DNA of 64,000 bases from Gammaproteobacteria bacterium (GCA_021647245.1 JAKIVC010000002.1:64184-128183); one strand, 5' to 3'; shown: positions 3,453-37,612, numbered from the stretch's first letter. A program made the numbers and translations. The notes: generated by a model not told the origin, from the sequence alone.

Positions 3453-3850
3453 TGCGTAACCGCCCTCGGTACATGGTGTTTTACGGCATCCAGTAGTTCA
3501 TCTTTGGTAAAAGGCTTGGTCAGGTACTGATCCGAACCTACAATCCGCCCACGGGCACGGTCAAACAGACCATCTTTACTGGTGAGCATAACCACCGGAG
3601 TTGTTTTGAAGGTGTGGTTGTGTTTAATCAGGGCGCAGGTTTGATAGCCATCGAGGCGCGGCATCATCACATCAACAAAAATCAGATCGGGCTTGTGATC
3701 GGTGATGATAGAGAGTGCAGCAAACCCGTCGATGGCTGTGACAACATCACAACCCGCTTTTTGGAGGAGTGTTTCCGCTGTGCGGCGGATTGTTTTACTG
3801 TCATCAATGACCATCACTTTTACATTTTGAAACTGGGTTGTATTCGCCAT
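3449..3850 (-). CDS. CheY-like single-domain response regulator (PilG/PilH family). Only one copy is present here.
   Basis: 133 aa. Receiver motifs VMVIDDS ... LIFVDVMMPRLDG ... VMLTSKDG ... K. First gene of the pil-chp operon and divergent from the gshA/gshB side, as pilG is in Pseudomonas. Confidence 0.75.
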   Translation of the reverse strand: MANTTQFQNVKVMVIDDSKTIRRTAETLLQKAGCDVVTAIDGFAALSIITDHKPDLIFVDVMMPRLDGYQTCALIKHNHTFKTTPVVMLTSKDGLFDRARGRIVGSDQYLTKPFTKDELLDAVKHHVPRAVTQ

Positions 3851-4279
3851 GCGTTCGTCCTGTTATTTTCTTCGCCTTGATCGACTCGTTTCGACTGGCA
3901 GTAAAAGCGCACTAAAGCGAAGAAATTAAACCAATATTGTCAAAGTTGCACCTATTTTATTTTGCTCAAGATAACACTATTTTTGATTTTTTGAGACAAA
4001 TTTATCTGCTTTTCGCAGGGCGTGAAAAGGTTACCGGCGTTTCATGTTAAACTGATGGGCACCTGAACTTCGTTAGTTATCTTCAAATTTATTGTTTTAA
4101 GGTTTAATTGATTATCCCGCAAAAAACAACCGGGATTAGTGCTTTTTCGACGATTGTGTCAGGCTATTTCACTCTGAACATAGGGTGAAAGTATAGGCCG
4201 AACCAAGCGCCTATCAGTCGGTCGTACTCGTTGTATTTACTCGGTTTTTAGTGGTGGCCACAGTGATGAAGGAAAATTA

Positions 4280-5569
4280 ATGACATTTCAACAGCATGTG
4301 AGCGTACCGCACTTGACAACCGCCCTCACAGGACCTCTGCAACACATTGAGAGCCACCTGCTTGGGCATCAAGTCGAAATTGAGACGTGGTTCCGCAGTC
4401 AGTGGCTAAAGACCCCTGCCCCTTTTTATACCTCGGTTGATCTGCGTAATGCGGGTTTCAAGCTGGCGCCGGTCGATACCAACCTCTTCCCGGCAGGCTT
4501 TAATAACCTCAATAGTGCTTTCATGCCGCTCTGTATCCATGCAGTACAATCGGCCGTGGAGCGGATTTGCCCCACTGGGCGGCGAGTTTTATTGGTGCCC
4601 GAAAATCATACCCGTAACCTCTTCTACCTGGAGAGTCTGGCAACACTGGTGCAAATTATTACTGCGGCGGGTTTTGAAGTGCGCATTGGCTCACTGCTGG
4701 CAACACTGGATGAGCCCATGTGTGTGGAGCTGCCCTCGGGGCGAAGTGTGACGCTGGAACGCCTGATTCGCCATAACTCCCGCGTTGGTGTGGCCGGTTT
4801 TGACCCCTGTGCGGTGCTATTAAATAATGACCTCTCCGAGGGGTACCCTGAAATATTAGTGGGTATAGAGCAGTCTATTATTCCACCGCTGGCATTGGGC
4901 TGGTCAAATCGACTGAAATCGGGTCACTTTGCACACTATCGTGATGTTGCCGAAGAGCTCTCCGACTTGGTTGAAATCGACTCCTGGCTGATCTCTCCCT
5001 TGTTTCGCAACTGTGGTGAGGTCAGCTTTAAAAAGCGTGAAGGTGAAGATTGTTTACTGAAAAATGCGACCGCGCTATTTACCGCGATAAAGCTTAAATA
5101 TGAAGAGTATGGTTTAACCGATAAACCTTTTATTGTCGCCAAAGCAGATGCGGGCACCTACGGAATGGGAATAATGACCGTGGAGAGTCCAGAGGAGCTG
5201 GTTGAGCTTAATCGCAAGCAGCGCAATAAAATGGCTTCCGCCAAAGGGGGGCAAGAGGTGAGCCAGGTTATTTTGCAGGAGGGTGTTTATACCTTCGAGA
5301 CGTGGGGTGATGCGGTCGCAGAGCCGGTAGTTTATATGTTGGATCACTTTGTGGTTGGCGGGTTTTACCGGGTGCATAAAGGACGAGGTGTAAAAGAGAA
5401 TCTGAATGCACCAGGAATGCACTTTGAGCCGCTGGCTTTTGCAGAGTCTTGCAGCACCCCTGATCGCAGCGAGGCGCCGGATGCGGGTATTAACCGCTTT
5501 TACGCCTATGGCGTGATTGCTCGCTTGGCGATGCTGGCGGCAGCTCGTGAAATTCATCAACACAGTTAG
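4280..5569 (+). CDS. Putative glutamate--cysteine ligase of the rare proteobacterial (T. ferrooxidans-type) family.
   Basis: 429-aa ORF ending 10 bp before gshB on the same strand. It has no similarity to the E. coli GshA layout. The call rests on the conserved gshA-gshB pairing and on size, with no motif-level confirmation, so treat it as tentative. Confidence 0.45.
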   Translation: MTFQQHVSVPHLTTALTGPLQHIESHLLGHQVEIETWFRSQWLKTPAPFYTSVDLRNAGFKLAPVDTNLFPAGFNNLNSAFMPLCIHAVQSAVERICPTGRRVLLVPENHTRNLFYLESLATLVQIITAAGFEVRIGSLLATLDEPMCVELPSGRSVTLERLIRHNSRVGVAGFDPCAVLLNNDLSEGYPEILVGIEQSIIPPLALGWSNRLKSGHFAHYRDVAEELSDLVEIDSWLISPLFRNCGEVSFKKREGEDCLLKNATALFTAIKLKYEEYGLTDKPFIVAKADAGTYGMGIMTVESPEELVELNRKQRNKMASAKGGQEVSQVILQEGVYTFETWGDAVAEPVVYMLDHFVVGGFYRVHKGRGVKENLNAPGMHFEPLAFAESCSTPDRSEAPDAGINRFYAYGVIARLAMLAAAREIHQHS

Positions 5570-5578
5570 GGTCAGGTT

Positions 5579-6535
5579 ATGGGGATAAAGCTCGGCATTG
5601 TAATGGATCCGATTGACGCTATCACAACCTACAAAGATAGCAGTTTTGCGATGTTGCTGGAGGCGCAAAAGCGAGGTTATCAGCTCTACTACATGGAGAT
5701 GAAAGACCTCTCTCTACGTGATGGCAAGGCGTTCGGTCGTCTCTCCCCTCTGACGGTAGATGACAACCAGGAAGCATGGTTTACCTTAGGTGATGCGGTT
5801 GAGCAGCCACTGACAGAACTTGATGTTATTTTGATGCGTAAAGACCCCCCTTTTGATACAGAGTATATCTATGCCACCTACTTGCTCGAACGCGCTGAAG
5901 TGGAGGGTGTGCTGGTTGTCAACAAGCCACAGAGTCTGCGTGATGCCAATGAAAAGCTTTATACCGCATGGTTTAATCAGTGTACGCCCCCGACACTGGT
6001 GAGCCGCCGAGATGATCAATTGCGCGCTTTTTTGGTGGAGCAGGGTGATATTATTCTTAAGCCATTAGACGGGATGGGCGGAGCTTCGGTATTTCGGCTA
6101 CGTCAGCAGGATGCCAATATTGGTGTGACTATTGAAGTGCTGACCCAGCATGGCCAGCGCTATATCATGGCGCAACGTTTTATTCCGGAGATCACCTCAG
6201 GAGATAAGCGCATCTTGATGGTGGATGGCGAACCGATACCCTACGCACTGGCGCGCTTACCCGCTAAGGGCGAGGTGCGGGCCAACCTGGCGGTGGGTGG
6301 CCGGGGGGTGGGTGTCGAGTTAAGTGAAAGAGACCACTGGATCTGCCAACAGGTGGGGCCGGCGTTGCGAGAGAAAGGGTTGCTATTTGTGGGGCTGGAT
6401 GTGATTGGTGACTACCTGACAGAGATCAATGTGACCAGCCCTACCTGTATTCGCGAGCTAGATAATCAATACGGGATCAATATCAGCGGCAAACTGATGG
6501 ATGCCATTGAGCAGCGTCTGGCGGCGCGCACCTGA
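5579..6535 (+). CDS. gshB: Glutathione synthetase.
   Basis: 318 aa. N-terminal MGIKLGIVMDPIDAITTYKDSSFAMLLEAQKRGY and an ATP-grasp C-terminal half. Position matches Pseudomonas gshB next to the pil cluster. Confidence 0.9.
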   Translation: MGIKLGIVMDPIDAITTYKDSSFAMLLEAQKRGYQLYYMEMKDLSLRDGKAFGRLSPLTVDDNQEAWFTLGDAVEQPLTELDVILMRKDPPFDTEYIYATYLLERAEVEGVLVVNKPQSLRDANEKLYTAWFNQCTPPTLVSRRDDQLRAFLVEQGDIILKPLDGMGGASVFRLRQQDANIGVTIEVLTQHGQRYIMAQRFIPEITSGDKRILMVDGEPIPYALARLPAKGEVRANLAVGGRGVGVELSERDHWICQQVGPALREKGLLFVGLDVIGDYLTEINVTSPTCIRELDNQYGINISGKLMDAIEQRLAART

Positions 6536-18594: not shown

Positions 18595-20544
18595 GTGATG
18601 GAAACCAATACTTTATCAGAGAGATTACACTGCTATAACCAATGGAAAGATGACGTCGTCCATAAGCTTAAAGCTTATGAACAGGTTCTTAAGGATGCTG
18701 AACTTGACAGCGTAGAGCAGGAAATCCGCATCGACGATATGATTGCCAAGTTGCATGATGATCGTATTGTTGTGGCCTTTGTCGCAGAGTTTTCCCGGGG
18801 GAAAACCGAATTAATAAATGCTATTTTCTTTGCAGATTACAAACGCCGACTACTGCCATCTGAGGCAGGTCGTACCACGATGTGCCCAACCGAGCTATTT
18901 TACGACCATGAGAGTACGGATGCTTACATTCGGTTACTGCCAATAGAGACACGCCTAGACGACAGCAGCATCAATGAACATAAACAGGATCTGAGTTACT
19001 GGACAACGTTACACCTTGATATCTCTTCACCAGAAAAGATGGCAGAGAGCTTTAAAGAGGTTATAAAGGTTAAAAAGGTGAGCGTGAAGGAGGCGATTAA
19101 ACTCGGCCTCTACGACGAAACACTGGTGGATAATGAAGAGTCGGAGGTTGAGATCCCCATGTGGCGGCATGCCCTGATCAGCTTCCCCCACCCGCTGTTA
19201 AAAGAGGGACTAGTGATCCTGGATACACCCGGCTTGAACGCGCTGGGTACAGAGCCAGAATTGACCATGGATATGTTACCCAATGCACATGCAATCATGT
19301 TTGTTTTGGGTGCTGACACCGGTGTAACCCGCTCTGATATGGAAGTGTGGGATCAGCATGTGAGCAGTTTTAGCCGTGGCAGTAATCATTCAAACCTGAT
19401 GGTGGTGCTCAATAAAATTGACACATTATGGGATGAGTTGCTGGATGATGAGCAAGTGGCCGCCAATATCGACAGCCAGTGCCAAAATACCGCTAAAACA
19501 TTGAATGTCTCCCCCGACTCAATATTCCCTGTCTCGGCCCACAAGGGGTTGCTGGGGCGCGTGAAAAATAACCCAGAGCTGCTGGAAAAGAGTGGCATTG
19601 CATCGATTGAAAATATGCTTTCGGATACTGTTTTACCGGAAAAGCAGACCATTATTCGTGATCGGGTTATCGACGAAGTGGGCACTATGGTGGAGTCAAC
19701 GCTAAATATTATCCAGGCGCGACATAATTCAGTGCAAGAGCAGCTGGGCGAACTGCAAGGGATCGGCAACAAAAATGAGGCGATGATCAGCCACTTGATC
19801 AAGACCACCCATGCTGAAGCAATCGCCTATAAGGTGAGAGTCGACAACTACCACACCAGCCGTAATCTGCTTAACAGCAAAATCAAAGAGATCCTGGAAT
19901 ACGTTGACCTTAAAGTCCTCGATAGGGTGATTGATGAGGCTCGCAATGAGATGCAAGGCACCTGGACAACCGGCGGCTTGCGTAAATCAATGATGTTCTT
20001 CTTTGAAAATATGATGCAGATCATGTCGCAGGTGAACTACCTTGGCGAGCAAGCCAATGATTTGGTCAAGACATCTTACAAGCGCTTCCATGAAGAGTTT
20101 GGCTTGCCAAACATTCGCCCAACGCTGTTTTCCAACCAGGTTTATGTGCTGCGTATGGAGCGACTACTCAAGCGCTCCGAGGAGTACCGAACCAGCTCAA
20201 CCATGACCATGACCGAACAGAGCTTTGTTATTAAGCGTTTCTTTGTCTCGGTGGTGAGCCATGCCCGTGATGTTTTTTATAAAGCGAATGAAGAGTCTAG
20301 GCTGTGGTCAAAAAGTGCCTTGGCTCCTATCGCAACGGAGATAAAAGAGCGCAAGCGGGTAATGGATAAGCGGCTCAGTAACCTGAATCGAGTAAAAGAC
20401 TCCAAAGAGACATTAGAGAGCAAGCTGAACGAGCTGGCTGACGAACAGCGTGGCCTAGATAAACAGCTCAGCGAACTCAATGAGATCAATGAAATTATTT
20501 GCGCCCCCCTCGACAAAGAGAAGAGTGAGCCTAATAATCAATAA
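18595..20544 (+). CDS. Bacterial dynamin-like protein (dynamin-family large GTPase).
   Basis: 649 aa. G1 is VAEFSRGKTELINAIF, G3 is VILDTPGLNALG, G4 is VVLNKIDTLW. The GTPase is followed by a long helical stalk and a C-terminal coiled coil (LESKLNELADEQRGLDKQLSELNEINE). Confidence 0.7.
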   Translation: MMETNTLSERLHCYNQWKDDVVHKLKAYEQVLKDAELDSVEQEIRIDDMIAKLHDDRIVVAFVAEFSRGKTELINAIFFADYKRRLLPSEAGRTTMCPTELFYDHESTDAYIRLLPIETRLDDSSINEHKQDLSYWTTLHLDISSPEKMAESFKEVIKVKKVSVKEAIKLGLYDETLVDNEESEVEIPMWRHALISFPHPLLKEGLVILDTPGLNALGTEPELTMDMLPNAHAIMFVLGADTGVTRSDMEVWDQHVSSFSRGSNHSNLMVVLNKIDTLWDELLDDEQVAANIDSQCQNTAKTLNVSPDSIFPVSAHKGLLGRVKNNPELLEKSGIASIENMLSDTVLPEKQTIIRDRVIDEVGTMVESTLNIIQARHNSVQEQLGELQGIGNKNEAMISHLIKTTHAEAIAYKVRVDNYHTSRNLLNSKIKEILEYVDLKVLDRVIDEARNEMQGTWTTGGLRKSMMFFFENMMQIMSQVNYLGEQANDLVKTSYKRFHEEFGLPNIRPTLFSNQVYVLRMERLLKRSEEYRTSSTMTMTEQSFVIKRFFVSVVSHARDVFYKANEESRLWSKSALAPIATEIKERKRVMDKRLSNLNRVKDSKETLESKLNELADEQRGLDKQLSELNEINEIICAPLDKEKSEPNNQ

Positions 20545-20662: not shown

Positions 20663-21730
20663 GTGCACCCTATGCAAAATCGCGATACCTTGCCAGATAC
20701 CATTCGTATGACTGAATATAGCCATGGTGCCGGTTGTGGCTGTAAAATATCACCTAAGTTGCTGGATGATATTCTCAAAAGCACAACACCTAACCCCACC
20801 TTTCCAAAATTGTTGGTGGGCTACGACACCAAGGATGATGCGGCGGTATTCGATTTGGGTAATGGCAGTTCGGTCATATCAACCACTGACTTCTTCATGC
20901 CGATTGTGGATGACCCCTTCGAGTTTGGGCAAATTGCGGCGACCAATGCGATCAGTGATGTTTATGCCATGGGCGGCACGCCGTTGATGGCCATCTCTAT
21001 TTTTGGCTGGCCGATTGAGACATTAGGAGCTGATGTTGCCTCACAGGTTATTGAGGGTGGCCGTCGCGCCTGCGCACTGGCCGGTATACCACTGGCGGGA
21101 GGGCACTCCATTGACTCACCCGAACCCATTTTTGGGTTGGCAGTAACCGGGCAGGTGGAAAATCGCCACCTGAAGCGCAACAGCCAAGCAGAGGCGGGCT
21201 GCAAACTCTATCTGACCAAGCCACTTGGTATCGGTATTTTGACCACTGCACAGAAAAAAAAGTGCCTTAAGCCAGCACACCGCCGGATCGGCCCCGAAGC
21301 GATGTGCCAGCTTAACAGTGCCGGTACTCAGTTTGCTAAGCTCCCGGCGGTCAAGGCGATGACGGATGTGACGGGGTTTGGCCTGATGGGGCACCTCACA
21401 GAGTTGTGTCTGGGGAGTCATTTACAGGCGCAACTGATCTTTGATGCCGTGCCGACGCTACCGGAGGTTGAATACTATCTGGCGCTAGGGTGTACTCCAG
21501 GCGGCACGCTACGAAATTTTGAAAGCTATGGTCACCATATTGGTGGCATGAGTGAACAGCAACAGATGATTTTGTGTGACCCACAAACCTCAGGCGGCCT
21601 CTTGGTGGCTGTTGCAGCCGAGGGCGAAGCTGAATTTTTAGCATTAACCGAAGCGCTAGGAATGTCATTGAGTCCGATAGGCCAGTTGAGCACCCCCGTC
21701 GCGAATCATGCTCTGGTGGAGATTATATGA
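20663..21730 (+). CDS. selD: Selenide, water dikinase (Cys-type).
   Basis: [13 protein letters not shown] active-site motif. Alternative start at MTEYSH (20708). Confidence 0.88.
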
Positions 21731-22842
21731 TGGAGCTTCCACAGGTTGACGACTATTCAGCGCTTTTTTTAGATGAAGTACCGATGATCGACCTGCGAGC
21801 CCCGCAGGAGTTTGAGCAGGGACGCTTTCAAAATGCGATAAACCTACCGTTAATGAACGATGAAGAGCGCAAGTTAGTGGGTATTTGCTATAAAGAACAA
21901 GGCCAGCAACAGGCGATTGCGCTGGGTCATGAGCTAGTAACCGGCGAGGTAAAACAGCAGCGCCTGGAGCGGTGGCTGCGGTTTGTAGAAGAGAATCCAC
22001 AGGGTGTTTTGTACTGCTTTCGTGGCGGACTACGCTCACAAATAACCCAGCGCTGGATCTATGAAGAGAGCGGCATCGTCTACCCACGAGTACACGGTGG
22101 CTACAAAACACTGCGCCGTTATTTGCTCGATGAGCTAGAGCGCTCCATTGCGCAGATACAGCCGACCATCCTCAGTGGACGCACTGGCACAGGCAAGACA
22201 CTGCTACTAAAGAAAATCAATAACAGCATCGACTTGGAAGGCGTCTATCATCATCGTGGTTCAGCATTTGGTCGTCACGCCACGCCACAACCGAGCCAGA
22301 TCGATGTGGAGAACCGGCTTTCAGTTGAGCTGCTGAAAAAAATCATATTAGCCGCTGAAGCAGCGCCCCAACTGCTGCTTGAAGATGAAGGGAGCAATAT
22401 CGGCTCACGCAACCTGCCCCACTCACTGATTGAGCGCATGGTGGCGGCACCCATCGTGGTACTGGAAATTCCACTAGCGCAACGGGTCGATATCGTATTC
22501 GATGAATATATTACGGCAGCGCTCTCTGAATATCAGCAGCTACTGGGCGACGAGCACGGCTTTACCACCTGGTCAGAAAACCTGCGCCAGGCACTTGGAC
22601 GGGTTAAACGTCGCTTAGGTGGAGAGCGTTACGGACTGCTTGATGCCGTGATGAGTGGTGCGATTTCTGACCAGCAACAACGGGGTGAAACATCGGCTCA
22701 CCGCGAGTGGATTCAGCGATTACTTAACGATTACTACGACCCAATGTATGACTATCAGTTACAGAAAAAAGCCGAGCGCATCACCTTTCGGGGCGATGAC
22801 AAAGCAGTAATTGAGTATCTTAATACTCAAAATATTACCTAA
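21727..22842 (+). CDS. selU: tRNA 2-selenouridine synthase.
   Basis: N-terminal rhodanese domain with CFRGGLRS and a P-loop TGTGKT. Overlaps the selD stop. Confidence 0.8.
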
Positions 22843-22851
22843 TTGCACACT

Positions 22852-22885
22852 GGGGTCAGAGTAAACGTTACTTTACTCTGACCCC
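22852..22885 (+). terminator. 14-bp-stem hairpin immediately after selU. No U-tract, so its role as a terminator is uncertain.
   Basis: GGGGTCAGAGTAAA-cgttac-TTTACTCTGACCCC. Confidence 0.35.
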
Positions 22886-22900
22886 AGCGTCCACTCCCCT

Positions 22901-22915
22901 GCGACAACATGTCGC
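22901..22915. promoter_or_regulatory. Perfect 15-bp palindrome GCGACAacaTGTCGC about 85 bp upstream of the Met-rich lipoprotein operon.
   Basis: Read directly from the sequence. Candidate operator. Confidence 0.35.
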
Positions 22916-22998
22916 ATTCTTTCTATGCCGGGATTCCAATACAATTTTGTCATTAACTGTTCCCTACCCGGTTTATTGACTAAATTATAGGAGTCTCC

Positions 22999-24663
22999 AT
23001 GGCTATTCATAATAAGCGTAATATTTTATGGTCGGCACTGCTGCTGAGTGGTGCTGTGGCATTGAGTGGCTGTAATAGCTCATCAGATGATAATACCGTT
23101 GAGGGTGCAGCAATCGAGGGCTCTATTTTTGCCGCCCCGGTGAGTGCTGCTTCGATATCTGTGTTTGACCTGAATGGTAATCGGGTGGCAGGTCCGGTGA
23201 CGAGTGGGGCAGATGGGCATTATCAAATCACAATTCCTGATGCACACCTTGCCAGTGACCTTAGCTTTATCAGCAGTGGCGGCACGTTTACAGATGAGGC
23301 GACGGGTGAGGCTAATGTCAGCGCAGGTCAAATGTCTGTTTATGTCGCGGCAGATAGCCTTGCGGCGGGTAGTGAAGTACACGCGACACCCTCTTCTACG
23401 ATTATGCACCAGTTGATTATGCAACATGGTCAAGGCTATGTAGAGGCGCAGGCGGCTTTTGAGAGTGCCTTTGGTTATCAGCCTGATTATACTGTGGCAC
23501 CAACGGATGCGACCGCACCGGCGGCCGATGCGACCGACCAGCAAATGTTGGCGGGACTGCGTGCCGCCAGTTTCAGCCAATTAGCCCAGGATTTGGGGAT
23601 GAGCGCCACTGATCAGTTTGCCTTGCTGGAGGCGTTGGCACTGGATTTGTCAGATGGTGAGCTTGACGGGCAGAGTACATCGGGTGCGGTTATTCTCCCG
23701 GCACCTGTCAACATACCATTGCAATTGCATATTCAGCATCAGTTTGCGATGGCACTGGAGGGGTTTCATCGGGGGGGGCGCAATGCAACCAGTTTAAATG
23801 CCAGTCAAATAGGCGTATTGCCCTTTGCTAAAGTGGCCAGCAGTGAAAGTTACCGCTTCGAATATCAGCCGGGCATGATGCCGGCAATGGAGGGGAAAAC
23901 CACATTCAAAATTGTGGTTACAGATGCGGCCACTGGGCAGCTGGCGCAGGGCGGATTGAACTTAATACTACAGGCAAAAATGTATATGGCGACAAAAATG
24001 CATGCCACACCAGTGGATGGTTGTAGTGAATCGGCAACAGCAGGTGTTTATGATTGTACTATTTTCTACCTGATGCCTTCGGTTATGAACGGTATGTCGA
24101 TGGGCTATTGGGAGTTGATGGTTACCACTGATAATAATGAAATGGTCAGCTTTTACCCGGGTGTTGGTATGGGCATGAACGGCAATGGTAAGCGCAGTTT
24201 GATGGCTCAATCAACGGGCACTGTGGTGGATGATGCCGGTTTGACTGTTCCTACCTACAGCGATTTTGTTATGAGTCCCACCTCGGCACGGAAGTACCTC
24301 CTGTTTAAAGACAGTATTGCAGCAGGCTCCATTTCAGGCCACAAAGTGCGCCTGTTTATTGCGGTAAAAGAGAGTATGGACTCATTTCCAGCGCTCTACA
24401 CAGGTGCTAGTTTTAATATGGCTAGTTTTACTGTCAGCTCAATTAACGCAGAATTTTCAGTGGATGGCGCTAGCTGGTCACCTATGACAGAAGAGGGCGC
24501 GGGTTATTGGTCTGTTGATAACGCACCGGGTTTAGTCGATGGTGTTGAAAACACGTTCTATATGCGCCTGCATGTCAATGGTGAACAGAAAACAGCCAAT
24601 GGTAGTGTGCCGGCACTGGATGGTAGTAACGATTACGCAATTTTTACAACTACCCTGAATTAA
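22999..24663 (+). CDS. Large lipoprotein with an N-terminal carboxypeptidase-regulatory-like beta-sandwich and a Met-rich C-terminal half. Function unknown; possible Cu(I)-binding.
   Basis: Signal peptide plus lipobox ALSGC. GSIFAAPVSAASISVFDLNGNRVAGPVTSGADGHYQITIP. Met clusters GMMPAMEG, KMYMATKMH, LMPSVMNGMSMGYWELM, GVGMGMNGNG. Confidence 0.5.
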   Translation: MAIHNKRNILWSALLLSGAVALSGCNSSSDDNTVEGAAIEGSIFAAPVSAASISVFDLNGNRVAGPVTSGADGHYQITIPDAHLASDLSFISSGGTFTDEATGEANVSAGQMSVYVAADSLAAGSEVHATPSSTIMHQLIMQHGQGYVEAQAAFESAFGYQPDYTVAPTDATAPAADATDQQMLAGLRAASFSQLAQDLGMSATDQFALLEALALDLSDGELDGQSTSGAVILPAPVNIPLQLHIQHQFAMALEGFHRGGRNATSLNASQIGVLPFAKVASSESYRFEYQPGMMPAMEGKTTFKIVVTDAATGQLAQGGLNLILQAKMYMATKMHATPVDGCSESATAGVYDCTIFYLMPSVMNGMSMGYWELMVTTDNNEMVSFYPGVGMGMNGNGKRSLMAQSTGTVVDDAGLTVPTYSDFVMSPTSARKYLLFKDSIAAGSISGHKVRLFIAVKESMDSFPALYTGASFNMASFTVSSINAEFSVDGASWSPMTEEGAGYWSVDNAPGLVDGVENTFYMRLHVNGEQKTANGSVPALDGSNDYAIFTTTLN

Positions 24664-24679
24664 TGTTTTAAGGTTTTCC

Positions 24680-25651
24680 ATGGCTAATCTCTCAACAAAG
24701 GCCGCCCTCTTTGCAGTGGCGGCCCTTACCCTTTCTCAGCCTTTATCTGCGGCATCATGCTGTGGCGGTGGCTCCTCTTCTGCCTTGGTTATGCCCAAAT
24801 TTGCTACGGGGATGGTCGACCTTTCGTTTTCCATGGAAAACTACGATGGCTATTGGAATAGAGAGGGGGAGTATACCGAAGACCCTGTGGGCTCTCGCTT
24901 GAAACAGTATCGTTTTAATGTTGGCTATGCCCACCGCTTGGGTAAACGCTGGCAGGCGAGTGTTGTCACCCCTTATGTCTGGAATGATAACCAATACAGC
25001 GGTGTCTCATCCGAAACCCAAGGGATGGGGGATACCACCATTAACCTTTGGTATGAAGGATTTGAGAATATCACCTGTGTCTGGAAAATAAAAAAGCCGG
25101 AGGATTGGATACCCGCCAGTTACTACGGGTTATCCATGACACTCCCCACGGGTGTCTCTCCTTATGACAATGTGGAGAATAGCTTTGATATTACCGGTCG
25201 GGGTTTTTATCGTGTGGATGCCAATCTGCTGTTGGATAAGACCATCTACCCCTGGAATGCGACACTGGCACTCTCTTACGGAAAGTATATAGAGCGTCCG
25301 GTTAATCGTGAATATGGCCGCTATGTGGCGCCGTATGATAAGCAGTTGGGTGACCGCTTTTCAGGCTCGCTCTCTGGGGGGTATACCCAGTTTCTTGATA
25401 ATATGGATACCCTGAGCTACACCCTCTCTTATGCTTATTTACAAGAGAGCCAAGGTGAAATTGATGGCATTACAGATACTACCACCGGAATGGAGAAGCA
25501 GACGCTATCCGCAACAGCAGCTTATGCCAGTATGGATCGGGACTGGGTCTTTAAACTAACCTTGAGCCACAGCCCTAAGCGGGATGGTTATGGTGAGAGT
25601 TTTCCCGTTACCAATGTGGTGACACTGGGGGTGAGCCATGTTCTTCGTTAA
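24680..25651 (+). CDS. Putative outer-membrane beta-barrel protein.
   Basis: Signal peptide, then mature N-terminus ASCCGGGSSS. Alternating amphipathic beta-strands rich in Tyr/Gly. Overlaps the next gene. Confidence 0.45.
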   Translation: MANLSTKAALFAVAALTLSQPLSAASCCGGGSSSALVMPKFATGMVDLSFSMENYDGYWNREGEYTEDPVGSRLKQYRFNVGYAHRLGKRWQASVVTPYVWNDNQYSGVSSETQGMGDTTINLWYEGFENITCVWKIKKPEDWIPASYYGLSMTLPTGVSPYDNVENSFDITGRGFYRVDANLLLDKTIYPWNATLALSYGKYIERPVNREYGRYVAPYDKQLGDRFSGSLSGGYTQFLDNMDTLSYTLSYAYLQESQGEIDGITDTTTGMEKQTLSATAAYASMDRDWVFKLTLSHSPKRDGYGESFPVTNVVTLGVSHVLR

Positions 25652-26174
25652 ACTTGTTGGCCTACTCATGCTGTTGCTGTTAAGTGCCTGCCAAGATGAC
25701 CTGAATCCATCGGATAGCGATGAGCGGCCTGTGGTTCAGACCGGTATTATTGGCAATCAAGTAGGGCAAATTGCCCCTGACTTTACGGCAGGCTCAACAA
25801 CACTAAACACCGCCCACACACTCTCTTCTGATTTACAAACCTATGATGCAGTGGTGCTCTATTTCACCATGTGGTGTCCTATTTGTGATGAGCATATGAG
25901 CCATCTGCGTGCGACTTATGTGAGCAACTACCCCAATGTGCAATTTTTCCTGGTGGATTATGTGAGCGGCTCGCTGGAGGCTGCACGTAATACACAACTT
26001 GCCAGTGGTTATGGCGATATGAGAGTGCTGGTTGATGTAAACCGGGAGATTGAATTTCTTTATGAAGGCACCATGGGGAGTACGGTTGTGATTAATAACA
26101 GTGGTATTGTGCTTATGAACCAAGGCTATAGTGATGGTCGTCAACTGGGTCAGGTATTGGGGGAGCTGCCATGA
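25638..26174 (+). CDS. Thioredoxin-fold lipoprotein with a CPxC motif.
   Basis: Lipobox LLSAC. Motif YFTMWCPICDEH. Confidence 0.55.
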   Translation: MFFVKLVGLLMLLLLSACQDDLNPSDSDERPVVQTGIIGNQVGQIAPDFTAGSTTLNTAHTLSSDLQTYDAVVLYFTMWCPICDEHMSHLRATYVSNYPNVQFFLVDYVSGSLEAARNTQLASGYGDMRVLVDVNREIEFLYEGTMGSTVVINNSGIVLMNQGYSDGRQLGQVLGELP

Positions 26175-26434
26175 GAGTGTGGTTACTCATCGCGCTATTT
26201 TTGCTCACCAAGCTGGCTTATTCTGAATCGGTCGAATTAAATGGCCAGCAGCTTTTTGAGGCTCGATGCAGTATTTGTCACCAACTGCCTGCACCCGATA
26301 TGTTGAATCATCGGCAGTGGCACCGGGTAATCAACACCATGCAAATTCGTATGCAACAAGCGGATATTGAGCCGCTGGATGAGGACGAAATTACCGCAAT
26401 AAAAGAGTATTTGCAGTGGTATGTAGATGATTAA
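26171..26434 (+). CDS. Small secreted monohaem c-type cytochrome-like protein.
   Basis: Signal peptide. Single CSICH (CxxCH) with a downstream Met (PDML). About 67-aa mature protein. Confidence 0.5.
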   Translation: MRVWLLIALFLLTKLAYSESVELNGQQLFEARCSICHQLPAPDMLNHRQWHRVINTMQIRMQQADIEPLDEDEITAIKEYLQWYVDD

Positions 26435-26942
26435 ATATTTGGCTTCAGCTGGCCTGTTGCTGCTTCTGAGCTTTCCGTTGCAGGCTGACCCTCTGGCAAC
26501 ATTTGGTGCGGAACCGGTGTCGGGAGCAGCAACGGCCTTTATCTTGCCGGACCTTGAGGGTGAAATTCATGCCTTGGCGCAGTGGCAGGGCAAGGTGGTG
26601 ATGCTCAACTTCTGGGCAACCTGGTGTGCCCCTTGTCGGGACGAAATGCCGGGAATGGAACGGCTTTGGCAACGCTATGGTGAGGATGGCCTAGTGGTAG
26701 TGGCGATATCTGTTGATGAGGGAATGGAGCGCCGGGTTGCCAAATTTGTTGAGATATTGAGATTAACCTATCCGATTTTACTCGACCCAGACTATGCGGT
26801 AGGTGACCTTTATCAAGTGAGCGGGCTGCCACACAGTCTATTGATTGACCGTGAAGGGCAGTTGATTGCAAAGGTTGTGGGCCAGCGTGAGTGGGATAGT
26901 GCAGAGTCTTTTGCGTTAATTGAGTCACTACTCTCCCAGTGA
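26427..26942 (+). CDS. TlpA/ResA-like periplasmic thiol:disulfide oxidoreductase.
   Basis: Signal peptide. Motif NFWATWCAPCRDEMP. Confidence 0.75.
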   Translation: MIKYLASAGLLLLLSFPLQADPLATFGAEPVSGAATAFILPDLEGEIHALAQWQGKVVMLNFWATWCAPCRDEMPGMERLWQRYGEDGLVVVAISVDEGMERRVAKFVEILRLTYPILLDPDYAVGDLYQVSGLPHSLLIDREGQLIAKVVGQREWDSAESFALIESLLSQ

Positions 26943-26972: not shown

Positions 26973-27608
26973 TCAGCGTGTACCGCGAATAACCATGGTT
27001 TTCCCGCGAGCGGTGATCAACCCCTGCTCCTCCAGATTTTTTAATACTTTGCCTACCATCTCCCGCGAACACCCTGCAATGCGTCCTAACTCCTGACGGG
27101 TTATTTTGATCTGCATGCCATCGGGGTGGGTCATGGCATCCGGCTGCTTACTCAGGTCGAGCAGGGTACGGGCAACCCGTCCGGTCACATCCATAAAGGC
27201 AAGATGGCCTACTTTAAGGCTGGTGTTGCGTAGCCTGAGCGCCATCTGGCTGGCGAGGGAAAACATGATCTCGGGGTGCTCCTGGATAAGTCGACGAAAT
27301 TTATCGTAGCCAATCTCTGCCAACTCACAACTTACCCGTGCACGAATGATGGCGCTGCGCCCTTGTGACTCTTTATCAAACAGCCCCATTTCACCAAAGA
27401 AATCACCCGCATTAAGATAGGCGAGCACAATCTCGCGCCCATCCTCATCTTCTATATACACCGCGACCGAGCCTTCAGTAATGTAGTAGAGGGTCTCAGG
27501 GGTGTCACCCGCGTGGATAATCGTGCTCTTAGCAGCGTGCTTGCGACGGTGGCAGTGACTGAGAAAAAGCTCAATAACAGCATCCGGCTGTGGCGGGGTA
27601 AATTTCAT
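26973..27608 (-). CDS. crp: cAMP receptor protein (CRP/Vfr) transcriptional regulator.
   Basis: Near-identical blocks to E. coli CRP: [30 protein letters not shown], and the [38 protein letters not shown]. Confidence 0.92.
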
Positions 27609-33875: not shown

Positions 33876-34967
33876 GTGAATGAGATGTTCCGATATTTAG
33901 TAGTGGCTGCGCTGTTTCCTATGTTGTCCGGCTGTGGTGGAGATACCCCGGCATCATCCAGTGAACCAGAGCGTGTTGAAAAAATAGTCGCTCGAGAGAG
34001 TAACCGTAGCTGCCTTGCTCCGGCGGATGCTATCGATACCGCGACCCGGCTCTCCACCACAGGCTGTTTTACAGATGTTAGCAACCAGATAATGGCGGGT
34101 GGGGTGATCCCCTACACCGTCAATAGCGTGTTGTGGTCCGATGGTGAGAGCAAAGGGCGTTATTTTGCAGTGCCGGATGGCACGACCATCAGCTTAACGG
34201 TGGACGAATCTTCAATTGTTGCCAGTAATGGCACTAAAAATGGTGATTTCAACTTTCCGGTAGGCGCGGTGGTGATCAAACACTTCTATAGTGGCAGCCG
34301 TATCGTTGAGACCCGCTTGCTGATGAACCATGCCAATGATGGTTGGGGTGGCTACGCCTATCAGTGGGATGAGTCACAGAGTGACGGTACCCTGCTGGTT
34401 GGCTCAAATAGCATCACCACACCGGTCAGCCACTATTTCCCGAGCCGCGAAGAGTGTATGGAGTGCCATACGGATGCCGCTCGGGTGTTATTAGGGCCGG
34501 ATACTCTACAACTCAATTACCCCCTTTACTATACGGATGGCACAGAAGAGAACTATCTCGATGCTTTGGTTCGATTAAATTACCTCTCGGCACCGTTGCT
34601 GGCGGATTATAAGGTGGATCGGCTCTATGCAATTGACGATAGCGACGCACCATTAGAGCAGCGAGCCAGAAGCTATTTGCACAGTAACTGCTCGGGCTGT
34701 CACCGCACTGGCGCACCGCAAGGTGGCTTTGATCTTCGTTACACCTCATCGTTTGTAAACAATGTTTGTGGTATCGCTGCAGCAGAGCCGACCAGCCCCA
34801 CCGGAGGGTTGCTGATCGACCCCGGCAATGCTGATAACGCCACTATTCAGCAGCGACTCGCCTCTATGGGGAGCATTCAAATGCCACCTATCGGGCGAGA
34901 GCAAACCGACCCCGAAGCGGTTCAAGTGATGGCTGATTGGATCAATAGCCTGCAGGGCTGTGATTAA
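33876..34967 (+). CDS. Putative dihaem c-type cytochrome lipoprotein.
   Basis: Lipobox MLSGC. Two CxxCH motifs (CMECH and CSGCH), the second followed by GAPQGGFDLRY and MPPIG. Confidence 0.5.
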   Translation: MNEMFRYLVVAALFPMLSGCGGDTPASSSEPERVEKIVARESNRSCLAPADAIDTATRLSTTGCFTDVSNQIMAGGVIPYTVNSVLWSDGESKGRYFAVPDGTTISLTVDESSIVASNGTKNGDFNFPVGAVVIKHFYSGSRIVETRLLMNHANDGWGGYAYQWDESQSDGTLLVGSNSITTPVSHYFPSREECMECHTDAARVLLGPDTLQLNYPLYYTDGTEENYLDALVRLNYLSAPLLADYKVDRLYAIDDSDAPLEQRARSYLHSNCSGCHRTGAPQGGFDLRYTSSFVNNVCGIAAAEPTSPTGGLLIDPGNADNATIQQRLASMGSIQMPPIGREQTDPEAVQVMADWINSLQGCD

Positions 34968-37612
34968 CCCAGCAACTTTTTTAACTCCGGCACACATGAG
35001 CCACAATTTGTGCCGGCATTCAGATAGCTACCAATCTCTTCCACACTTTTCAAGCCATGTTTTTGGATCGCCTCTCGAATACTGTTTTCACCTACCTTGA
35101 AACAGGCGCAGACCACACGCCCGGTATCAACCTGGCCGACCGGTGGCTTTCCAGTGAGCAGTGCACGGCGCTCATCATTATCCAGCACCTCTTTTTCAAA
35201 AAGTGAGGCGAGCCAACTGCGGGGTGGCAGCGCTTTGTCCGGGGCGATGAAAATACAGCTCTCCACTTGATCTCCTGTCATACGAATACCTCGATAGGTG
35301 TTTGCGCCGTTATCCAGCAGTTCGACCCAGTTGACATCATTATTTGAGGTGCAAAGATAACTTCTCGCCCATGCGGGGAGATCTTTGGAGCGTTGCTCAC
35401 CCGCCACTTCGTATCGATAGTGGTTATTGCCGGTTGCCCTTGCCCAGTAACAGACCCCTTCCAGTTTTAATGCGCGGCGCGAAAGGATAAAGCCGTGCCA
35501 TGCGGTTTGGTAAGGCTTAAGCTGCACCGGCGTATGTTTAAACTCAGGTTGGCCCGAAAGCGGGTCTACCGCAGGATTGACCACTGCGGAGGCTTTTCCC
35601 CTGCTGGAAAACTGCTCGCTCCAGTGCATCGGCGCAAACAATTCACCACGGCGCTGGCCGTTGTCCAAGCGTACTCGCCCGATCATCTCACCCCAGCGGC
35701 TGGTCACCGTGGCTAACGCATCCTCATTGATAGAGAGCGCCACGGCATCATCAGGATGAATGGCGATGTAGGGTTCGGGGCTATGCTCAGATAGCCGTGG
35801 CGCCTTTCCAGTGCGGGTCATGGTGTGCCACTGGTCGCGTACCCGCCCAGTATTCAGAATAAAGGGAAAGCTGTCACAGGGCATGTGTGCGGGTAGCCGT
35901 GGCTCAATGGCTTGAAACTGTGCCTTGCCTGATGGCGTGAAAAAATGGCCATCACTAAACATGCGAGCACTCCCCGCAGGCTGCTGTTGATTCACTGGCC
36001 ACTGGATGGGTGATAGCTGGTGGTAACTCTGTTGAGTTTGACTGCTCAGTGCCGAAAGGTCGAAGTCACGCTCTCCGTTGTTTCTATATCCGGAAAGAGC
36101 CGCGTGTTCGTTAAATATTTCGTAAGGGTGTTGATAATTAAAACCATCGCTATACCCCATACGCTTGGCCACCTCAGAGATTATCCACCAATCGGGTTTT
36201 GCTTCACCGGCAGCCGCCTGAAAAGCTCTCTGGCGTGAGATACGTCGTTCAGAATTGGTAACGGTGCCGCTCTTCTCCCCCCAGCCTTGGGCCGGTAATA
36301 AAATATTGGCACGGAGGGTGGTGTCGGTCTGCTTAACGCAATCGGAGACCACTACAAACTCGCACTGTTTGATCGCTTCTGCAACGTGGTCTGCATTGGG
36401 CATGCTGGCTGCGGGGTTGGTGGCCATGATCCATACAGCCTTGATCTTTCCCTTGGCAATATCATCAAACATATCTACCGCCTTGCGGCCGCTTTGTTTA
36501 GGAATGGCGGGTGAGCCCCAGAAGCTTTGTACTAAAGTACGGTGCGCGGGGTTTTTTATCTCCATATGAGCGGCCAACATATTGGCCAACCCGCCTACTT
36601 CGCGCCCTCCCATGGCGTTTGGTTGGCCAGTAAAAGAGAAGGGGCCCATGCCGGGGCGACCGATACGCCCGGTGGCCAGATGGCAGTTGATAATGGCATT
36701 GACCTTATCCGAACCACTGGTTGATTGATTAATGCCCTGAGAGTAGACAGTGACCACCCGCTCTGTGCGGGAGAAGAGTCGATAAAACGCTTGAACCACA
36801 GACACTTCGAGGCCACAGCGTAGTGCCACGGAGTCGACGCTAGGCGCGGTTTTTTCTGCCATGCGGAGTGCGGTCTCAAACCCCTCGGTATAAGCATTCA
36901 AATAACTGTGGTTTATTTCACCATCCCGCTGCAGATAACTTAGCAAGCCATTAAACAGTACGGTATCGGTACCAGAACGCAGGGGCAGGTGGAGGTCGGC
37001 AATGTCACAGCTGGGGGTCTCTCTGGGGTCGATTACTACCACCATCAGATCGGGGTTGACCCGCTTTGCCTGGTTGATTCGCTGAAACAGTACCGGATGA
37101 CACCAGGCTGCATTGGTGCCGGCCAGTACAATCAGCTTTGCTCGTTCCAGATCTTCATAACAGCAGGGCACGGTGTCTGACCCAAAAGCGCGTTTATGGC
37201 CTGTGACAGAAGAGGACATGCAGAGCCGCGAGTTGGTATCAATATTGGCTGTGCCGATATAACCTTTGATCAGCTTATTGGCGACATAGTAATCTTCAGT
37301 CAAGAGTTGCCCCGACACATAAAAAGCGACCGCGTCAGGGCCGTGCTGCTCAACGGTTGCTAAAAACCTCTCCGCGACCTCCCCAAGCGCCTGATCCCAG
37401 CTGGCGGGTATTCCCTCAATTTCGGGCTGGAGCAGCCGCCCCTCCAGTCCCAAGGTTTCGCCCAACGCCGACCCTTTGGAGCAGAGCTTGCCAAAATTAG
37501 CGGGGTGCAGCGGGTCACCTTGGACTGTGTAGCCGCCATCAGCATTCGCTGCTACCAGCACTCCGCAGCCAACACCACAATAGGGGCAGGTTGTTTTTGT
37601 CATCTTGGACAT
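34964..37612 (-). CDS. nasA: Assimilatory nitrate reductase catalytic subunit (molybdopterin oxidoreductase with a C-terminal BFD-like 2Fe-2S domain).
   Basis: N-terminal 4Fe-4S Cys motif TTCPYCGVGCGV. Mo-bisMGD domains. C-terminal CACFKV...CGSC. Confidence 0.85.
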   Translation of the reverse strand: MSKMTKTTCPYCGVGCGVLVAANADGGYTVQGDPLHPANFGKLCSKGSALGETLGLEGRLLQPEIEGIPASWDQALGEVAERFLATVEQHGPDAVAFYVSGQLLTEDYYVANKLIKGYIGTANIDTNSRLCMSSSVTGHKRAFGSDTVPCCYEDLERAKLIVLAGTNAAWCHPVLFQRINQAKRVNPDLMVVVIDPRETPSCDIADLHLPLRSGTDTVLFNGLLSYLQRDGEINHSYLNAYTEGFETALRMAEKTAPSVDSVALRCGLEVSVVQAFYRLFSRTERVVTVYSQGINQSTSGSDKVNAIINCHLATGRIGRPGMGPFSFTGQPNAMGGREVGGLANMLAAHMEIKNPAHRTLVQSFWGSPAIPKQSGRKAVDMFDDIAKGKIKAVWIMATNPAASMPNADHVAEAIKQCEFVVVSDCVKQTDTTLRANILLPAQGWGEKSGTVTNSERRISRQRAFQAAAGEAKPDWWIISEVAKRMGYSDGFNYQHPYEIFNEHAALSGYRNNGERDFDLSALSSQTQQSYHQLSPIQWPVNQQQPAGSARMFSDGHFFTPSGKAQFQAIEPRLPAHMPCDSFPFILNTGRVRDQWHTMTRTGKAPRLSEHSPEPYIAIHPDDAVALSINEDALATVTSRWGEMIGRVRLDNGQRRGELFAPMHWSEQFSSRGKASAVVNPAVDPLSGQPEFKHTPVQLKPYQTAWHGFILSRRALKLEGVCYWARATGNNHYRYEVAGEQRSKDLPAWARSYLCTSNNDVNWVELLDNGANTYRGIRMTGDQVESCIFIAPDKALPPRSWLASLFEKEVLDNDERRALLTGKPPVGQVDTGRVVCACFKVGENSIREAIQKHGLKSVEEIGSYLNAGTNCGSCVPELKKLLG

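Follow-up and report, generated by a model that had tools for sequence, protein, structure and literature searches.

The DNA analyzed here, a window of 64,000 nt, carries an operon of five genes (g1 to g5), and we put the chances at slightly better than even that its first three genes form an envelope Cu(I) relay that acquires copper and delivers it to cuproenzymes. In favor of this reading are the co-conservation of the three-gene core, the Met/His/Trp positions of g1, the cis-proline exchange in g3, the SCCGG sequence of g2, and a gene context of NosL, Sco, and leader proteins. We infer the relay steps from sequence, models, and gene context, and the same holds for copper itself, the direction from outer membrane to periplasm, and cuproenzyme maturation. 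No description of the g1-g3 system was found in the literature searched. The features of the locus are as follows.

22853 to 22916, + strand: two hairpins past selU, the upstream operon boundary (read from sequence)
22853 to 22886, + strand: hairpin 1, GGGGTCAGAGTAAA...TTTACTCTGACCCC (read from sequence)
22900 to 22916, + strand: hairpin 2, TGCGACA-ACA-TGTCGCA followed by a T-run, scored terminator-like
22989 to 22993, + strand: AGGAG ribosome-binding site, 5 nt upstream of the g1 ATG (read from sequence)
22999 to 24663, + strand: g1, 554-aa lipoprotein of four modules with predicted lipidated Cys25 (ORF, relatives, AlphaFold model)
23104 to 23385, + strand: g1 residues 36-129, N-terminal beta-sandwich of transthyretin/carboxypeptidase-regulatory type
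23389 to 23811, + strand: g1 residues 131-271, helical domain with conserved GLRAAxFSQL and DLSDGxLDG
23821 to 24213, + strand: g1 residues 275-405, Met-rich beta-sandwich with a putative Cu(I) site
24286 to 24654, + strand: g1 residues 430-552, C-terminal beta-sandwich (model and conservation)
24680 to 25651, + strand: g2, 12-stranded outer-membrane beta-barrel, 323 aa (ORF, relatives, AlphaFold model)
24755 to 24772, + strand: g2 residues 26-31, S-C-C-G-G-G, mature N-terminal tail (alignment of relatives)
25638 to 26174, + strand: g3, thioredoxin-fold lipoprotein, Cys18, 178 aa (conservation; profile matches to Etrx1 and ResA structures)
25869 to 25895, + strand: g3 residues 78-86, M-W-C-P-I-C-x-x-H, with C80, C83, and M78 invariant and H86 in at least 90%
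26073 to 26078, + strand: g3 M146-G147 at the cis-proline position of the thioredoxin fold, invariant
26171 to 26434, + strand: g4, 87-aa monohaem class I cytochrome c (profile match, conservation)
26267 to 26281, + strand: CSICH haem motif of g4
26427 to 26942, + strand: g5, predicted TlpA/ResA-like periplasmic thiol:disulfide reductase, 171 aa (Pfam, conservation)
26622 to 26636, + strand: WCAPC of g5, with cis-Pro135 kept

A preliminary description of this DNA had proposed a single envelope operon, and the ORF listing of the window supports it, with five tightly packed + strand ORFs between 22999 and 26942. A 16-nt gap separates g1 from g2, and the g2/g3, g3/g4, and g4/g5 junctions overlap by 14, 4, and 8 nt, matching the three overlaps of 4 to 14 nt reported there. 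Signal peptides or lipoboxes had been assigned to all five products; we likewise read lipoboxes in g1 (LSGC) and g3 (LSAC, Cys18) and N-terminal hydrophobic signal peptides in the translations of g2, g4, and g5. All of the quoted motifs (MMPAM, MYMATKMH, MPSVMNGMSMGY, GVGMGMNG, SCCGGG, WCPIC, CSICH, and WCAPC) are present. The operon is distinct from the upstream selD-selU pair, from which it is separated by a selU-g1 intergenic region of 156 nt; the two hairpins precede the AGGAG ribosome-binding site. The five ORFs are real genes and not chance ORFs, since g1 and g2 have many database relatives (221, all annotated hypothetical, and 821, respectively, at E<=1e-3) and confident AlphaFold models (pLDDT 87 and 80).

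The genes are co-conserved elsewhere: g2 follows g1 in 74 of the 76 related loci with room, and g3 comes next after g2 in 71 of 73. This synteny spans Gammaproteobacteria, Desulfuromonadota/Geobacter, and Nitrospirota with unrelated flanks, and 303 GTDB species genomes contain a g1 relative. The five-gene unit originally described therefore stands as an operon in the window, but the conserved unit consists of g1-g3, and g4 and g5 are lineage-specific accessories found mainly in Gammaproteobacteria. The cytochrome g4 was found in 26 of 37 gammaproteobacterial loci and in none of those from Desulfuromonadota or Nitrospirota. It retains C33, C36, H37, M57, and M61 and scores just above the Pfam cut-offs for Cytochrom_C (22.5 bits; cut-off 21.3) and DHC (22.8 bits; cut-off 22.2), so that the small CxxCH monohaem cytochrome is upheld by haem motif, distal Met, and profile match. 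The second thioredoxin-fold protein was also correctly recognized: g5 matches AhpC-TSA (5.8e-26, 91 bits) and Redoxin (1e-19, 71 bits) in Pfam and conserves W66-C-A-P-C70 and P135. Its NCBIfam scores are below cut-off for both TlpA (104.8 bits versus 230) and the ResA subfamily (121.9 versus 170), and by sequence we class it as a TlpA/ResA relative, not an equivalog.

The lipidated Cys25 of g1 is kept in 79/79 relatives. The putative Cu(I) site comprises M328, M330, H335, M359, M368, W371, M391, and M393; M328, M330, M359, and W371 are conserved in 100% of relatives, H335 in 96%, and M368, M391, and M393 in 90-92%. Met residues are thus kept in g1 orthologues, and the proposed Met clusters hold for these later Met/His/Trp positions (90-100%) but not for MMPAM, which is conserved at just 47-68%. 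The C-terminal beta-sandwich conserves M460, W493, W504, and K531-T532 and is kept in the short form of the family. Pfam and NCBIfam searches gave no match above threshold for g1; no curated family in either collection names g1 or g2, in line with the initial failure to name a characterized system, and neither protein matched a characterized family of unrelated function.

By structure comparison, the Met-rich domain of g1 has a CopC-type beta-sandwich fold, and its closest match is CrdA, a CopC-family copper protein. We treat this model-based match as a lead, not proof, because the beta-sandwich fold is common. Pfam searches of g1 and its relatives gave no CopC sequence match, and we rejected membership in the CopC/CrdA sequence family, the loop LMPSVMNGMSMGYW merely resembling MxxMPGMxxM. 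Both CrdA/CopC/PcoC and g1 have a Met-rich loop beside a Pro, but it reads LMPSxMxxGxSMGYW in g1 versus MxxMPGMxxM (PMC9182242). Unlike these proteins, the g1 domain sits inside a multidomain lipoprotein, carries an invariant Trp and one invariant His, and is partnered by a barrel and a thioredoxin-fold protein rather than by CopD or an RND pump.

The sequence of the same domain suggests a remote relationship to the YtkA/CtaK domain of copper chaperones. Pfam YtkA (PF13115; gathering score, 25.9 bits) matched 13 of 29 g1 relatives in a common register at 13-33 bits, and two relatives exceeded the gathering score (L034, 33.3 bits; P0265, 37.8 bits). Most of these matches are below threshold and the Met-rich domain of the window's own g1 has no Pfam match even at E<=10, which argues against the copper relay. 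YtkA/CtaK, a lipoprotein, acts as a copper chaperone together with Sco (PMC13344008, PMC9145763), and its conserved His and Met are proposed to bind copper (PMC9145763); g1 is likewise a lipoprotein with conserved Met and His and putative copper binding. CtaK and Sco in Bacillus subtilis, and TlpA in Bradyrhizobium, serve CuA assembly of cytochrome c oxidase; CtaK is required for it, and the defect is rescued by added copper. The likeness of g1-g5 to this system lies in a lipoprotein tethered to the membrane whose beta-sandwich is of YtkA type with conserved His/Met, a thioredoxin-fold lipoprotein partner that would hold copper on cysteines, and a TlpA-like reductase (PMC13344008, PMC9145763). 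However, g1 is four times larger than CtaK with three extra domains, g3 falls outside the Sco family, and the g1-g3 cluster has an outer-membrane barrel as its obligatory third member and is not linked to oxidase genes.

The barrel g2 is of the 12-stranded FapF/COG4313 class, and its nearest fold is FapF, a protein-secretion channel. Assignment to the PcoB/CopB class was rejected, as g2 has neither the fold nor the Met/His-rich N-terminal extension; the CopB/PcoB/CusF likeness drawn in the preliminary description was for the Met clusters of g1. Pfam and NCBIfam searches with g2 gave nothing above threshold and no PF13557 match (FapF equivalog score, 13.5 bits versus a cut-off of 700), and several 60%-identical relatives carry precomputed PF13557 matches. 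FapF and COG4313 (Pput2725) are 12-stranded outer-membrane channels of the family PF13557, and g2 shares the 12-stranded barrel at 13-15% identity; it would be set apart by substrate from FapF, which exports amyloid subunits, and from COG4313, which handles hydrophobic molecules. A mature N-terminus with vicinal Cys had been noted, and 69/69 relatives, drawn from every lineage, have S26, C27, C28, G29, and G30. FapF and COG4313 channels are not known to have an invariant SCCGGG N-terminal tail. The A-A-S preceding the first of these Cys also fits a lipobox pattern. C133 of g2 is Ser in 18/69 relatives, which counts against the relay.

The closest solved sequences to g3 are Etrx1/Etrx2 and ResA (2yp6, E 1e-10; ResA, E 6.6e-7), all lipoproteins with WCxxC; its Pfam matches are AhpC-TSA and Redoxin only, near threshold. 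Unlike these proteins, g3 has Met-Gly for the cis-proline, and its WCxxC is flanked by an invariant Met ahead of the Trp and a conserved His past the second Cys; g3 also conserves a tether, DDLxPSGxDKRP. In alignment, M146-G147 takes the place of "siPt" in Etrx1 and of L134-P135 in g5. The earlier "CPxC" lipoprotein is confirmed in its WCPIC and thioredoxin fold, but g3 is not an ordinary thiol reductase, because the cis-proline is lost; a TlpA/ResA/CcmG-type oxidoreductase was rejected on the same position. Sco1/SenC was rejected as well, g3 having CPIC (CxxC) instead of CxxxC with a distal His and no Sco Pfam match, a difference that also weighs against the relay. According to a proposal by Su et al. 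2007 (cited in PMC2757866), the cis-proline keeps CxxC from binding metal, and the Met-Gly of g3 would be a change associated with metal binding.

The copper link suggested earlier is supported by neighbors in other lineages. Of the related loci, 16/19 from Desulfuromonadota and 5/5 from Nitrospirota have NosL downstream (Pfam E 2e-11 to 2e-15), with one to three paralogues per anaerobic-lineage locus in place of g4/g5, and Sco1/SenC (true Sco) occurs as separate genes in two to three related loci. A Cys-rich exported leader ending in PP[DEV]PPP (160-250 aa, 10-16 Cys, motif TSRxx[DE]PP[DEV]PPP) is encoded 0-225 nt upstream of g1 in 16/22 Desulfuromonadota loci. In anatomy it resembles the CutF/CruR copper sensors (PMC9973294, PMC9426467), but it is larger, has its own motif, and gave no match in a Pfam search. 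In one locus (L088), a DUF2946-like gene (21.8 bits; cut-off 23.7) precedes a short-form operon. Compared with known NosL and CutF/CruR (DUF2946) systems, the related loci thus have the core followed by NosL and preceded by a proline-rich-tailed Cys-rich protein or a DUF2946-like protein (PMC9973294, PMC9426467). NosL is absent from this window, as is a CutF/CruR-type (DUF2946) leader ORF from the ORF listing of its selU-g1 region. Two further points speak against the relay: CutF-like leaders also sit upstream of systems for other metals (PMC9973294), and cuproenzyme genes (oxidase, NosZ, multicopper oxidase) do not recur beside the cluster in the related loci surveyed.

An unlikely alternative is copper/silver detoxification, in which g1 would sequester Cu(I) like PcoC/CopC/CrdA/CusF, g2 would release it across the outer membrane as proposed for PcoB/CopB, and the thioredoxin-fold proteins, like those of the Scs system, would mend thiols damaged by copper. 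CrdA, which g1 matches best in structure, is a determinant of copper resistance (PMC9182242), CutF-like leaders are frequent upstream of metal-detoxification genes (PMC9973294), and in Scs systems copper stress is accompanied by proteins resembling thioredoxin (PMC10907172). The recurrent partners, however, are assembly factors (NosL, Sco, YtkA-like, TlpA-like) and not efflux parts; P-type ATPases, RND pumps, multicopper oxidases, and CopR/CusR-type regulators do not recur near the related loci. Moreover, by their record titles the carriers come mostly from sulfidic or anoxic sediment and vent settings, where free copper should be scarce, not in excess.

Quite unlikely, in our estimate, is an accessory role in extracellular electron transfer or envelope redox, with g1 and g2 as a porin-lipoprotein conduit or surface-lipoprotein exporter, the cytochrome c and thioredoxins carrying electrons, and the Met residues in another role. 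In about eight gammaproteobacterial loci, multihaem gene sets (MtrC-like, NHL, and Fer4) immediately precede the cluster, which suggests such a link and argues against the relay; Geobacteraceae, Desulfuromonadales, and Deferrisomatales are among the carriers, and the secretion function of FapF would fit an exporter. But most loci, this window included, lack these multihaem neighbors, g1-g3 have no haem motif (0 CxxCH per protein), the sole cytochrome is missing from all Desulfuromonadota and Nitrospirota loci, and the Met/His/Trp signature, NosL, Sco, and CutF-like leaders are left unexplained. We give similarly little credence to another thiophilic or redox-active substrate, be it ferrous iron (through a P19-like site assisted by copper), Zn/Cd/Hg, or sulfane sulfur/polysulfide, which sulfur oxidizers would take up through the Cys-Cys tail of g2. 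Thioredoxins accompany P19 systems in Campylobacter, FtrD-like proteins and MacB-type ABC transporters recur beside the cluster in anaerobes, many carriers are sulfur oxidizers, and DUF2946 proteins of the CzcI type reportedly sense other metals (PMC9973294). Yet the cluster is also found in non-sulfur-oxidizing Geobacter and Nitrospirota, and in characterized systems the partners NosL, Sco, and YtkA are specific for copper. The P19 copper site is His-rich, whereas g1 conserves a single His with many Met and Trp; P19/FtrA/Tp34 copper-iron proteins, which pair a His-rich copper site and an adjacent acidic iron site with an Ftr1 permease partner, were rejected, and no Ftr1/EfeU permease recurs near the related loci. 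The selD-selU pair, a separate operon in the window, is not among the 25 most frequent neighbor families of gammaproteobacterial loci.

In the Cu(I) relay that we favor, g2 would be a small 12-stranded outer-membrane channel whose invariant Cys-Cys-Gly-Gly-Gly tail lies on the periplasmic side, and g1 an outer-membrane-anchored lipoprotein whose YtkA/CrdA-like beta-sandwich presents a Met/His/Trp site of the Cu(I)-binding kind seen in CusF, CopC, and CtaK. g3 keeps its CxxC, Met78, and His86, and with Met-Gly in place of the cis-proline that normally keeps metals off the thiolates, it would for that reason serve as a thiolate acceptor of the Sco kind and not as a reductase. Cu(I) might cross or be captured at g2, pass among the Cys-Cys tail, the g1 Met site, and the two-Cys site of g3, and from these sites enter cuproenzyme assembly. 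In (micro)aerobic Gammaproteobacteria, this window included, the TlpA-like g5 may keep the cysteines reduced, and g4 could, conjecturally, supply electrons, e.g., for Cu(II) to Cu(I). In anaerobes, NosL chaperones may serve instead, and the PPDPPP-ending Cys-rich leader probably senses metal. The accessories would thus fit host lifestyle, with g4/g5 in (micro)aerobic hosts and NosL plus the leader in anaerobic ones.

The preliminary description had proposed a five-gene envelope operon at 22999-26942, with a possible role in copper or redox traffic, and the ORF listing bore out five plus-strand reading frames at these positions.

Genes of the cluster in the window (ORF listing)
22999-24663, + strand: g1, Met-rich lipoprotein, 554 aa
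24680-25651, + strand: g2, outer-membrane beta-barrel, 323 aa
25638-26174, + strand: g3, thioredoxin-fold lipoprotein, 178 aa
26171-26434, + strand: g4, monohaem cytochrome c, 87 aa
26427-26942, + strand: g5, TlpA/ResA-like thiol:disulfide reductase, 171 aa

The tight gene packing also held, with 16 nt separating g1 from g2 and the next three junctions overlapping by 14, 4 and 8 nt, as did the export signals on all five products (lipoboxes LSGC in g1 and LSAC in g3; signal peptides in g2, g4 and g5), and every motif that had been quoted was found in the translations. Two hairpins (22853-22886 and 22900-22916) close the selD/selU-like pair upstream, and an AGGAG site lies 5′ of the g1 ATG; g1-g5 therefore form their own transcription unit. 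A promoter scan of the region gave a count no better than that of shuffled sequence. The hairpin nearer to g1 is a perfect palindrome (TGCGACA-ACA-TGTCGCA) followed by a T-run, which was scored as terminator-like; an operator at which a regulator of g1-g5 binds would be just as plausible a reading. Recent horizontal acquisition of g1-g5 was rejected because the GC content of the operon region (0.48-0.51) is the same as in the remaining window. The upstream pair (20663-22842) consists of selD, with AIRS domains of the selenophosphate synthetase type, and a 371-aa gene that overlaps it by 4 nt; by eye the latter resembles tRNA 2-selenouridine synthase (selU/ybbB), and a Pfam search with it found no match at E ≤ 1e-5. 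We dismissed a selenium link as coincidental, since both hairpins separate this pair from the operon; the selD-type family is absent from the 25 commonest neighbour families of the gammaproteobacterial loci.

Related loci were sampled by context look-ups and by scanning a single genome for each GTDB species, from which 80 loci were fetched, and synteny was counted by tblastn and clustering over 83 non-redundant loci. A g1 relative is encoded in 303 of the genomes scanned. The barrel gene follows g1 in 74 of the 76 loci with enough sequence, g3 comes next in 71 of 73, and the flanks are unrelated across loci. The conserved unit is thus the three-gene core g1-g3 and not the five genes initially proposed, with g4 and g5 varying by lineage. 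Gammaproteobacterial carriers belong to the Chromatiales, Thiohalomonadales, Thiotrichales and Oleiphilaceae; others are found in the Desulfuromonadota (Geobacteraceae, Geomonas silvestris Red330), the Nitrospirota, the Deferrisomatales and further groups. Database relatives number 221 for g1 and 821 for g2; all that are named are called "hypothetical", and uncultured bacteria account for nearly the whole set. The g1 family is small, its Met-rich domain matching only 154 cluster representatives among 1.84 billion.

The g1 protein has no match above threshold in Pfam or NCBIfam. Its AlphaFold model (pLDDT 87) shows four modules: an N-terminal transthyretin/carboxypeptidase-regulatory-like sandwich, a helical domain, a Met-rich sandwich (residues ∼275-405, 11.5% Met) and a C-terminal sandwich. 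The Met clusters noted earlier are conserved in part. Across 79 sequences M328, M330, M359 and W371 are invariant, H335 is conserved at 96%, M368, M391 and M393 at 90-92% and M460 at 84%, but the first cluster, MMPAM, reaches just 47-68%. Pfam YtkA matches 13 of 29 Met-domain sequences in the same register, two of them above the gathering score; the Met domain of the window's own g1 has no YtkA match. In the lipoprotein YtkA/CtaK, His and Met residues are conserved; the protein is a partner of Sco during assembly of CuA, and copper supplementation rescues its loss (PMC9145763, PMC13344008). Among solved structures, neither the profiles of g1 and of its Met domain nor a search with the N-terminal half found a meaningful sequence match, and Foldseek of whole g1 against the PDB gave just generic, uninformative tandem-Ig matches (antibodies, filamin). 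Variant architectures occur: a short form of ∼290-320 aa (relatives P0262, P0263 and P0267) has the Met-rich and C-terminal domains only, and a duplicated form carries this two-domain unit in tandem (P0241, 526 aa). For the one short-form gene with a context look-up, which is on two contigs (L088, at 2608-6169, and L089), the next genes again encode a barrel and a thioredoxin-like protein; in L088, TlpA-like and DUF2946-like genes precede (DUF2946 at 21.8 bits against a cut-off of 23.7).

The barrel g2 likewise has no Pfam or NCBIfam match above threshold, and its profile found only a marginal match among solved structures, to FapF. Its N-terminal S26-C27-C28-G29-G30 does not vary among the 69 sequences compared, which cover every lineage, and a conserved L36-x-x-P39-K40 comes after it. 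The A-A-S/C junction is compatible with cleavage by signal peptidase I and also, though less typical, with a lipobox; whichever cleavage applies, the mature protein is predicted to start with Cys-Cys-Gly-Gly-Gly on the periplasmic side. The vicinal cysteines of Cox17, which loads Sco1, bind Cu(I), and we liken the g2 tail to them as an analogy only. We dropped C133 as a third universal copper ligand because this position is Ser in 18 of the 69 relatives.

The g3 protein matches Pfam AhpC-TSA at 27.5 bits (cut-off 26), with Redoxin slightly under its cut-off, and a profile of 31 sequences matches the extracytoplasmic thioredoxin lipoproteins Etrx1 (E 1e-10) and ResA. This profile shows M78-W-C80-P-I-C83 without variation, and H86 in at least 90% of the sequences. 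Since it has a CxxC motif and no Sco match, g3 is by its sequence not a Sco family member. A conserved tether, DDLxPSGxDKRP, lies C-terminal to the lipidated Cys. At the cis-proline position g3 has an invariant Met146-Gly147; g5 keeps Leu-Pro at the same aligned position. In the passage of PMC2757866 that cites Su et al. 2007, the cis-proline is described as better conserved across the fold than CxxC and is thought to block metal binding. Its loss is a hallmark that would let the g3 thiolates hold metal. A paralogous origin of g3 and g5 was rejected, their pairwise match not being significant (E 0.5).

Library searches identified g4 as a monohaem class I cytochrome c and g5 as a clear TlpA/ResA-type redoxin, below the NCBIfam equivalog cut-offs. 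The cytochrome is present in 26 of 37 gammaproteobacterial loci and in no Desulfuromonadota or Nitrospirota locus; g5 lies downstream in 29 of the 37 and upstream in 4 of 5 Nitrospirota loci. In 16 of 19 Desulfuromonadota and all 5 Nitrospirota loci, the place after g3 is taken by members of the NosL family (one to three genes; Pfam E 2e-11 to 2e-15). Upstream of g1, 16 of 22 Desulfuromonadota loci encode an exported Cys-rich protein (160-250 aa, 10-16 Cys), in most cases 0-225 nt away, with the motif GECSGDCxxCGCSxERSATRTCCCWQKK; every copy ends in TSRxx[DE]PP[DEV]PPP plus 4-6 residues. This family has no Pfam match and looks like a new CutF/CruR-type metal-sensing leader.

Examples of the putative Cys-rich leader gene in related loci
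L054:7107-7739
L025:7259-7783
L083:7118-7630
L063:7260-7748

Beside the NosL paralogues of anaerobes, a four-gene set recurs (L079:7468-10568, L070:2500-5651, L055:3361-6509), coding for a small ∼100-aa protein, a permease of the FtsX/MacB type, an ABC ATPase, and a multi-pass membrane protein of 330 aa that has conserved Cys pairs but lacks a Pfam match; FtrD-like proteins sometimes accompany it.

Taken together, all three core proteins carry invariant soft-ligand signatures, fold and remote sequence link the core to copper chaperones, and its lineage-specific partners include copper-chaperone and copper-sensor-like genes. On balance we favor, with some reserve, the reading that g1-g5 relay Cu(I) at the outer membrane and in the periplasm. 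Copper would be the metal of g1-g3, passing from the barrel to g1 and on to g3, or in reverse, and the purpose would be supply rather than detoxification. The reductase g5 would keep thiols reduced and g4 might supply electrons, e.g., for Cu(II) reduction; the limitation of g4 to lineages other than strict anaerobes is consistent with such a role. Sco1/SenC genes occur in two to three related loci, and no cuproenzyme gene recurs in the neighbour census. Gammaproteobacterial neighbours include histidine kinases (10), MtrC-like multihaem cytochromes (about 8), Crp-family regulators (5) and NnrS (2), and those in anaerobes MacB-type ABC transporters (8) and FtrD-like proteins (2-3). Such neighbours fit copper less neatly, and we retain as minority alternatives that the cluster serves electron transfer or handles iron; the NosL, Sco1/SenC, Cys-rich leader-like and DUF2946-like genes of related loci point to copper.

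A bolder and rather doubtful version of the copper relay would make g1-g3 a new class of TonB-independent outer-membrane Cu(I) importer for sulfidic or low-oxygen habitats, with its own leader type. Here g1 may sit on the FapF-like barrel or pass through it, a placement hinted at by its resemblance to the surface lipoprotein PgcA, and would capture Cu(I); the Cys-Cys tail of g2 would hand it to the cis-proline-less chaperone g3, and the PPDPPP proteins would be the copper-sensing leader peptides of the core. To our knowledge, outer-membrane copper passage and delivery to cuproenzymes are well understood for few systems only. These are the TonB-dependent OprC/NosA type and the PCuAC-Sco-TlpA and CtaK-Sco relays. 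We found no described system of the same composition in the literature searched: each part is of a known kind, and we rate the cluster among envelope copper-chaperone relays, but the assembly matches none of the systems in that literature, its unmatched features being an obligatory FapF-like barrel with a Cys-Cys tail, a multidomain YtkA/CrdA-like lipoprotein and a thioredoxin-fold lipoprotein without cis-proline. At least 303 species carry the cluster, among them sulfur oxidisers, Nitrospirota and relatives of Geobacter; these organisms drive S, Fe and N cycling where copper is sulfide-bound. In such settings cbb3/aa3 oxidases, N2O reductase and multicopper oxidases are limited by copper supply. 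If the cluster is a copper supply line, it would add a barrel-coupled relay to the known chaperone repertoire, a natural case of a thioredoxin fold turned metal-binding through cis-proline loss, and genes that could mark copper acquisition in metagenomic data; the PPDPPP proteins of Geobacter relatives would extend CutF/CruR-type translational metal sensing to a new family.

Directly upstream of g1-g5, about 8 gammaproteobacterial MAGs carry large multihaem cytochrome gene sets, which may share a transcript with the cluster. They hold MtrC/MtrF-like domains together with a haem-motif-bearing Fer4_5 protein of ∼750 aa and a cytochrome that combines NHL repeats with ∼12 CxxCH.

Examples of multihaem gene sets in related loci
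L001:1-7692
L006:691-7892
L005:1-4699

In the window, a Crp-family regulator gene (26973-27608, − strand) converges on the cluster end; such genes adjoin the cluster in 5 other gammaproteobacterial loci (e.g., L007:11829-12467), which may reflect shared ancestry or a regulatory link. Farther out, 18595-20544 encodes a GTPase of the bacterial dynamin family (649 aa; Dynamin_N, E 1e-14) whose long C-terminus is coiled-coil-like, and 34964-37612 (− strand) a molybdopterin oxidoreductase of 882 aa that carries a BFD-like [2Fe-2S] domain at its C-terminus, the domain architecture of assimilatory nitrate reductase.
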